Part shown: one piece after another, positions 6,894 to 7,125 of the stretch
Layout of the letters: every line of letters starts with the position of its first letter
Numbering within the stretch: position 1 is the stretch's first letter
Virus genome (UHGV): UHGV-0350838
Source of the DNA: a virus
Length of the DNA: 10,201 nucleotides
Direction: 5' to 3' (one strand)
Notes under the pieces: generated by a model
The model's input: only the letters and a program-made list of their open reading frames with translations
Told to the model about the DNA's origin: nothing
Database searches by the model: none
Program-made: the position numbers and the translations under genes

Positions 6894-7057
6894 GAACGAG
6901 TATCGAGATGGCACATAGCCTCGCTCAAATTGGAGTCAGGTTTGTGCCAATACCAGTAGAAACAGACGAAGAATTTCATACGTTAGCCGCATCCCTTTTA
7001 CAAAAGCTGGAAATGATGGTGGCGAAAGCAGAAGCAGATGAGAGAGACCAGGTATGA
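6866..7057 (+). CDS. orf63: orf63, small conserved PL-operon protein, 63 aa
   Basis: [63 protein letters not shown]; position and size match lambda orf63. Confidence 0.8.
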   Translation: MHKASPVELRTSIEMAHSLAQIGVRFVPIPVETDEEFHTLAASLLQKLEMMVAKAEADERDQV

Positions 7058-7125
7058 CAACCACTGAATGCATTTTTCTGGCAGCGGGCTTCATATTCTG
7101 TGTGCTTATGCTTGCCGACATATAA
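7054..7125 (+). CDS. Putative 23-aa hydrophobic peptide, translationally coupled to orf63
   Basis: ATGA overlap with the orf63 stop; encodes MTTTECIFLAAGFIFCVLMLADI (one hydrophobic span); stop codon abuts the left arm of the 47-bp inverted repeat. Too short for the ORF track. Confidence 0.35.
   Translation: MTTTECIFLAAGFIFCVLMLADI

Follow-up and report, generated by a model that had tools for sequence, protein, structure and literature searches.

In lambda and the Shiga-toxin phages the exo-xis block, whose gene content is still being settled, has an effect on prophage induction and on the choice between lysis and lysogeny. A review of the region lists only two extra ORFs from ribosome profiling, one of 7 aa and one of 31 aa, and not the 27-aa ORF that is described here. 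Lambda orf2313 (31 aa), which was reported from ribosome profiling, resembles the 27-aa ORF in being a translationally coupled small cistron of the phage early operon; no such report was found for the 27-aa ORF. The neighbouring gene has been approached through deletions, and in lambda and Phi24B the whole annotated orf61 was replaced by a scar. These 'orf61' deletion mutants were affected in lysogenisation and in prophage induction. In the literature lambda Orf61 is described as truncated and probably non-functional, and in the published models of Phi24B Orf61 two predictors place residues 1-23 of the 93-aa form inconsistently. A published analysis also predicted a terminator between orf61 and orf73.

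Two other known systems share features with the locus. Type I toxins (Ibs, TisB, ShoB, Hok/Ldr) are short peptides of about 20-30 aa with one dominant hydrophobic helix, and the small peptide considered here is of the same general make. Template-switch mutations of the quasipalindrome type, which arise during replication, replace a segment by the reverse complement of a partly overlapping neighbour and create a perfect inverted repeat with little or no homology at the junctions, and the locus is like them in the replaced segment, the repeat and the junctions; typical patches are much shorter than 228 nt, however, which is the length of the patch found here.

The window, by which we mean the whole 10,201-nt stretch of DNA that was analysed, represents the pL operon of a lambdoid phage, and its plus strand runs in the pL direction. 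The gene order, which was established by PHROG matching, by similarity to phages with annotation and by reading the ORFs in sequence, is O (partial), cII, cro, cI, N, sieB, ea10, bet, exo, orf60a, orf63, orf73, xis, int (coordinates in table 1). Positions 7054-7125 are probably a 3'-truncated allele of a conserved 27-codon lambdoid gene, which lies between orf63 and a 71-aa orf61 in the pL-driven exo-xis block. The best reading of its product is a translationally coupled small membrane peptide that is C-terminally truncated in the window.

Table 1. Coordinates of the features at the small-ORF locus and of the 93-aa Orf61 annotations in two related phages
Feature	Sequence	Position	Strand	Remark
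bet	window	5252-6037		
exo	window	6034-6714		
orf60a	window	6705-6893		
orf63 (DUF1382, PF07131), 63 aa	window	6866..7057	+	TGA stop overlaps small-ORF ATG
Small ORF, probable 23-codon C-terminally truncated allele	window	7054..7125	+	codons 1-22 identical to relatives
Left breakpoint	window	7121..7122		collinear identity with relatives stops at 7121; blunt, no microhomology
Left repeat arm	window	7122..7170		inverted second copy of the orf2313 start and the orf61-orf73 terminator hairpin
Inverted orf61 fragment, pseudogene	window	7167..7349	-	codons 12-71 and stop of the 71-aa gene
Right breakpoint	window	7349..7350		collinearity back at 7350; 1 nt (G) common to both segments
Right repeat arm	window	7350..7398		original copy; plus-strand terminator-like hairpin 7374-7392, then T-run
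31-codon ORF MNMKSKIIRELQAPFLLFAFTLKRINQQFRD, counterpart of lambda 'orf2313'	window	7350..7445	+	start inside the 49-bp stem
orf73, TraR/DksA-type zinc-finger protein	window	7452..7673	+	next intact gene of the operon
93-aa Orf61 annotation (ST933Wp10)	933W (L106)	411-692		
93-aa Orf61 annotation (vb_24B_7c)	Phi24B (L113)	711-992		

The ORF listing of the window contains an ATG ORF of 23 codons on the plus strand at 7054..7125, with the product MTTTECIFLAAGFIFCVLMLADI. The original prediction had placed its start on the orf63 stop, and both this overlap and the 23-codon frame are confirmed by the sequence and by the ORF listing: in ...CAG GTA TGA the two genes share ATGA, the small-ORF ATG occupying 7054-7056 and the orf63 TGA 7055-7057. 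The further statement that the frame ends exactly at the left arm of the inverted repeat is correct as far as the edge of the arm is concerned, where the last sense codon (7120-7122) and TAA (7123-7125) are located, but the arm starts at 7122 and the end of the ORF is therefore 4 nt inside the perfect 49-bp inverted repeat. A 23-codon ORF is by itself unremarkable, given that 28 ORFs of at least 20 aa overlap the 1.2-kb stretch around it. The hydrophobic, single-helix character claimed for the product is borne out by its GRAVY of 1.83, which ranks first among the 171 window ORFs of at least 20 aa (mean -0.02, sd 0.64). The hydrophobic core, from E5 to D22, comprises 16 residues only. The peptide is acidic, and its lack of any basic residue is uncommon for a small membrane protein. 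No family match was obtained for it in Pfam, NCBIfam, PHROG, PADLOC or PDB, where only weak matches appeared (NCBIfam MtrF, 14 bits against a cutoff of 25 bits; one PHROG with E=0.3-0.7), and the exact 23-aa product is absent from a collection of 15 billion proteins. As part of a chain of overlapping cistrons, the ORF lacks a separate promoter and 5' UTR. As the Shine-Dalgarno sequence before 7054 is weak in the orf63 context (GAGAGAG/AGG, poorly spaced), initiation at 7054 would depend on coupling.

In relatives the ORF runs for 27 codons and encodes the peptide MTTTECIFLAAGFIFCVLMLADMGLVQ; in lambda it is intact at complement 30925..31008 and carries no annotation in NC_001416. Residues 1-22 of the window product are identical to the conserved peptide and the last five are lost, codon 23 onward being changed from MGLVQ-stop to Ile-stop. 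An intact 27-codon ORF with the same start and stop was present in 107 of 107 loci and subsequently in all 192 loci of an enlarged set, which was drawn from IMG/VR, phage records, genomes and assemblies. It was found in 175 phage records and, at 4,261 places, in 3,140 of 5,426 complete E. coli genomes (about 58%). Diversity is low: identity among phage records is at least 92% for the peptide and at least 93% at the nucleotide level in those examined, and a tblastn search against phages with E up to 10 returned near-identical copies only. Some E. coli genomes already list the exact 27-aa sequence as a 'hypothetical protein' (UniRef A0A0A2SGE8_ECOLX). This protein shares with the window allele the DNA, residues 1-22 and the ATGA overlap with the orf63 stop, but it ends in ...AD-MGLVQ-stop, whereas the window allele ends in ...AD-I-stop and does not overlap an orf61 start. 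The 27-aa ORF is unannotated in NC_001416, 434B, ev099, mEp332, AU5Stx1, Turner, 933W, Phi24B, 1H12 and PhiR30_1; a full-text literature search for the peptide string gave no match, and no study of the peptide was found. The two 90%-identity clusters that hold the 27-aa peptide (P0082, P0083, P0088) also include members of 428 aa and 471 aa from Logan and ENA, presumably mis-clustered or fused gene calls.

The arrangement around the ORF is conserved as well. Stop/start overlaps (ATGA or GTGA) chain orf63 (or Dam), the small ORF, orf61 and the 31-aa ORF. The ATGA overlap with the upstream stop is also present in ev099, lambda and the phages with Dam, and at the other end the TGA of the small ORF in relatives overlaps, again as ATGA, the start of the 71-aa orf61. 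This second overlap is lost in the window allele, whose TAA stop lies in the inverted-repeat arm. In PhiR30_1 and in the prophage of E. coli ATCC 8739 a Dam methylase stands in place of orf63. The mosaic junction, from which these loci are homologous to the orf63-type loci, coincides exactly with the small-ORF ATG; here too start and upstream stop overlap as ATGA, and 4 nt upstream of this ATG there is a Shine-Dalgarno sequence, GGGAGG. Divergent DUF1382 paralogues that are followed by unrelated genes, not by orf61, have no such ORF. Considering that the ORF is kept with orf61 across the Dam and orf63 contexts and is absent after DUF1382 paralogues without orf61, it belongs with orf61. The enzyme that replaces orf63 is a Dam-type N6-adenine methyltransferase (347-984 in the PhiR30_1 locus, L118; also in the ATCC 8739 locus, L116), and the replacement is seen in one lineage. 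The GTG start of the 31-codon ORF (7350-7445) overlaps the orf61 stop in relatives (ATG in lambda).

Selection was analysed in a first set of 60 haplotypes, on the interior 78 nt of the ORF, and in the enlarged set of 192 loci. Among the 18 variant alleles of the first set, 12 fall on codon position 3 and are all synonymous, and 6 are replacements; the third-position excess has a binomial P of 0.004, and 12 or more synonymous changes have P=0.0006 in a simulation that preserves the mutation spectrum. In the same alignment pN/pS is about 0.15 for the small ORF, while orf63 and orf61 have values of 0.34 and 0.25, respectively. In the enlarged set 13 of the 23 alleles are synonymous, these being at third positions, and 10 are nonsynonymous. 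Nine of the 10 replacements are rare (1-2 loci each), and the variants found in at least 5 loci comprise 9 synonymous ones and a single nonsynonymous one (F8L). The few replacements (F8L, A10V, G12V) leave the core hydrophobic. A CAA-to-CAG variant of codon 27 converts the start of orf61 from ATG to GTG, which is still a start codon. Read in the frame of the N-terminal extension of the 93-aa Orf61, the same sites give a pN/pS of 0.8, with 4 synonymous and 10 nonsynonymous changes; the polymorphisms then lie mainly at first codon positions and include the radical replacements F-to-S, S-to-P, G-to-R and C-to-F. Of the two frames, that of the small ORF is favoured by the pattern of substitutions, and the comparative data suggest that it is truly coding. 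Owing to the low diversity (at least 93% identity, no distant homologues), this test of selection rests on about 20 variant sites.

The annotations of orf61 in this region differ from phage to phage. The 71-aa orf61 of relatives, MTPQQENALRSIARQ...GVFKER, starts at the stop of the small ORF, and this form is annotated by RefSeq/PGAP and in the phage 434 record. In 933W, Phi24B, AU5Stx1 and Turner the start is placed 66 nt upstream in the other frame (the ATG corresponding to window 7068), which results in the 93-aa 'Orf61'. Lambda orf61 (61 aa, lambdap37) starts still further upstream in the frame of the 93-aa form and ends early because of an extra A in an A-run, which is found in 1 of the 60 haplotypes (alignment column 328); the frame of the 71-aa Orf61 is broken in lambda by the same extra A and the small ORF is intact. 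The orf61 annotations fall in PHROG 26061 and PHROG 303. The small ORF resembles the annotated orf61 of lambda, 933W and Phi24B in sharing the DNA of its annotated 5' part, but differs in reading frame; what is conserved as the core of Orf61 is the 71-aa protein, which begins at the small-ORF stop. The segment itself is not a member of the Orf61 family of PHROG 303, being in another frame. The annotation 'Orf61 / cell division protein ZapA' in its 93-aa form probably starts 22 codons too early, as judged from the comparison of sequences: the extension, which evolves neutrally, appears to be a misannotation in view of its radical changes and its pN/pS, and this agrees with the inconsistent placement of residues 1-23 in the published models. 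Several minor observations concern the same annotations. In lambda NC_001416 (about 30839-31024) the annotated start frame of orf61 has a TGA in the consensus and in most haplotypes. The ZapA Pfam match of Orf61 is sub-threshold (16 bits against 23.8). The 'putative membrane protein' annotation of phage 434 was considered and set aside, as it refers to the 71-aa orf61 and not to the small ORF, and two candidate distant relatives of orf61 (P0069, P0075) were rejected as indel-ridden assemblies.

The allele of the window owes its shape to a rearrangement. Window 7122-7349 (228 bp) is the exact reverse complement of positions 1808-2035 of the ev099 locus (L001) and stands in place of 224 bp (L001:1763-1986). 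The inserted segment consists of the 3' part of orf61 (codons 12-71) and the terminator, inverted. The last five codons of the small ORF and orf61 codons 1-11 are replaced; outright loss affects 45 nt, made up of 12 nt at the end of the small ORF and codons 1-11 of orf61, and orf61 codons 12-71 with the stop are present only inverted, on the minus strand at 7167-7349. The inverted fragment has no start before an internal ATG, which opens a 22-aa ORF (7167..7235). The 49 bp that follow orf61, in which the 31-aa ORF begins and the terminator-like hairpin is located, are now present twice in opposite orientations and form a perfect 49-nt inverted repeat with arms at 7122-7170 and 7350-7398 and a spacer of 179 nt; canonical loci have a single copy of this sequence and no such repeat. 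The transcript of the window folds with the 49-bp stem (-163 kcal/mol, z=-11). The terminator-like hairpin at 7374-7392 is located within the coding sequence of the 31-codon ORF. Phages such as ev099, mEp332, lambda, 434, 933W and Phi24B match both flanks at 98-100%, and the aligned pieces cover 62% of the query. The IMG/VR contig L004 matches window 5801-7121 and 7350-8258 at 100% identity and has the canonical order between, which makes the event recent or private. A site-specific invertible (phase-variable) segment was considered and rejected, since the relatives are single-copy and only the canonical orientation occurs in the 192 loci. We infer that the 228-bp rearrangement is one two-jump event resembling a template switch. 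Where the terminator ends, replication would have switched strands, copied back 228 nt and returned, and the outcome is a peptide with residues 1-22 that ends in Ile-stop and a dead orf61. Owing to the 49-bp inverted repeat, the pL transcript would form a long hairpin, with the 31-aa ORF start enclosed in it. The feature in the window is an ordinary private lesion, with a clipped small ORF and a dead orf61. The original prediction had offered, as one option, that the frame is a remnant of a disrupted orf61; orf61 is indeed disrupted, and by the event that clipped the ORF, but the frame differs and the substitutions favour the small ORF. It is a remnant of orf61 only insofar as one event damaged both; with the annotated 5' extension of orf61 it shares the DNA but not the reading frame (pN/pS 0.15 against 0.8).

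The main rival of the preferred reading is that the 27 codons are translated just so that ribosomes which have finished orf63 or Dam can reach orf61, through successive termination and reinitiation, the peptide being functionless and degraded. The ATGA overlaps at both ends, the presence of the ORF beside orf61 whatever is upstream, the preserved start codon of orf61 in the codon 27 variant and the lack of a protein family match would all fit such a role. A pure relay needs only an open frame, yet the amino acids are constrained (pN/pS 0.15; 9 of the 10 common variants synonymous) and the replacements F8L, A10V and G12V retain the hydrophobic core, and we consider a role restricted to the relay clearly improbable. 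It is even harder to maintain that the small ORF is spurious and that the true frame is the N-terminal extension of the 93-aa Orf61 with its ATG at window 7068. Although this frame is open in all loci, widely annotated and included in PHROG 303, its excess of nonsynonymous and radical changes, the 71-aa calls of RefSeq/PGAP and the phage 434 record and the structural inconsistency of the published models for residues 1-23 make it very unlikely. The least credible of the explanations is a type I toxin-antitoxin system, in which a membrane-depolarising peptide would be controlled by an antisense RNA ending at the adjoining minus-strand terminator, although the original prediction had pointed to both the resemblance and the terminator. 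The size and hydrophobicity are indeed like those of Ibs, TisB or ShoB-type toxins, and a terminator-like hairpin is present on the minus strand at 7146..7128. This hairpin, however, is a flipped copy of the terminator-like hairpin between orf61 and orf73, the original of which is still at 7374-7392; it exists only through the private inverted duplication, and no such hairpin is found beside the ORF in canonical loci. No promoter antisense to the small ORF is predicted, and Rfam gave no antisense RNA match. In contrast to the type I toxins, the small ORF has neither an antisense or divergent RNA gene with promoter and terminator nor a promoter or 5' UTR of its own, matches no toxin family in Pfam or PADLOC, and encodes an acidic peptide within a coupled operon; what it has in common with them is a small hydrophobic product. 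The Rfam scan returned only a miRNA-like match, rejected as due to chance. A weak sigma-70-like site (TTAATA-18-AATAAT, 9/12) is located on the minus strand at 7426..7397 (L001 2063..2034), directed antisense into the terminator and orf61, and canonical loci have two minus-strand terminator-like hairpins inside orf61, such counts being close to the shuffle expectation.

A different doubt concerns the truncated form itself, which could be a chimeric artefact of assembly, cloning or amplification, the real genome having the 27-codon ORF and an undamaged orf61. Among the collections searched, only this window shows the rearranged state: no place covering at least 80% of it emerged from megablast searches of 50,697 phage records and of 5,426 complete E. 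coli genomes, exact searches for the left junction string in genome, viral and metagenome contigs and for the right junction string in viral and metagenome contigs found none, and a look-up of the product of the junction-spanning ORF gave no match. The canonical state of L004, with its identical flanks, and the blunt junctions point in the same direction. Against this, two chimeric joins would be required, given the precise point at which the forward strand is resumed, the product matches the outcome of a single replication template switch, and the orf61 frameshift of lambda itself indicates that loss of orf61 is tolerated. An artefact is a serious possibility, if a somewhat unlikely one.

In the preferred reading, that of a coupled small membrane peptide, ribosomes finishing orf63 would reinitiate at the ATG at 7054 and produce a hydrophobic peptide of about one transmembrane helix, which would be inserted in the inner membrane. 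Termination of the small ORF would hand the ribosomes on to orf61, and the peptide itself is likely to be under selection, which would make it more than a relay. At a guess, it could modulate a membrane function of the host at an early stage of infection. With its start context and residues 1-22 retained, the peptide of the window allele could still be made, whereas orf61 cannot. A bolder proposal is that the 27-aa peptide is a genuine gene product of lambda which acts at the host membrane and explains part of the phenotypes of 'orf61' deletions and frameshifts, above all in lambda with its broken 71-aa frame and intact small ORF; taken as a whole we regard this as rather unlikely. Because the whole annotated orf61 was deleted, the published deletions also removed the small ORF, and it is possible that part of the lambda orf61-deletion phenotype stems from it. 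If the reading is true, the published phenotypes need to be re-read for this reason, a conserved and selected 27-codon hydrophobic gene under the annotated 5' end of orf61 is an added gene of lambda, and the 93-aa Orf61 models used for structure prediction carry 22 spurious residues. As an addition to a classic phage, the underlying 27-codon gene is of modest interest and open to testing.

Some minor observations concern the flanking genes. No ea22 follows orf73 in the window (7684-8486); a 200-aa minus-strand gene (7884-8486, PHROG 1416) is located there, and its counterpart is annotated 'putative membrane protein' in mEp332 and 434. At residue 45 the orf63 product of the window has Leu (T at 6999) in place of the Ser of ev099 and lambda, and public assemblies often carry this exact variant of Orf63 (471 index blocks). 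Near-identical orf63 loci (L084-L102) were also found in assemblies labelled Shewanella, Bradyrhizobium, Pseudomonas, Paenibacillus, Kitasatospora, Nanosynbacter and others. Their coverage is often about 1 and their identity to the query is 94%, the level of lambda Orf63, and most of them look like contamination with lambda control DNA.
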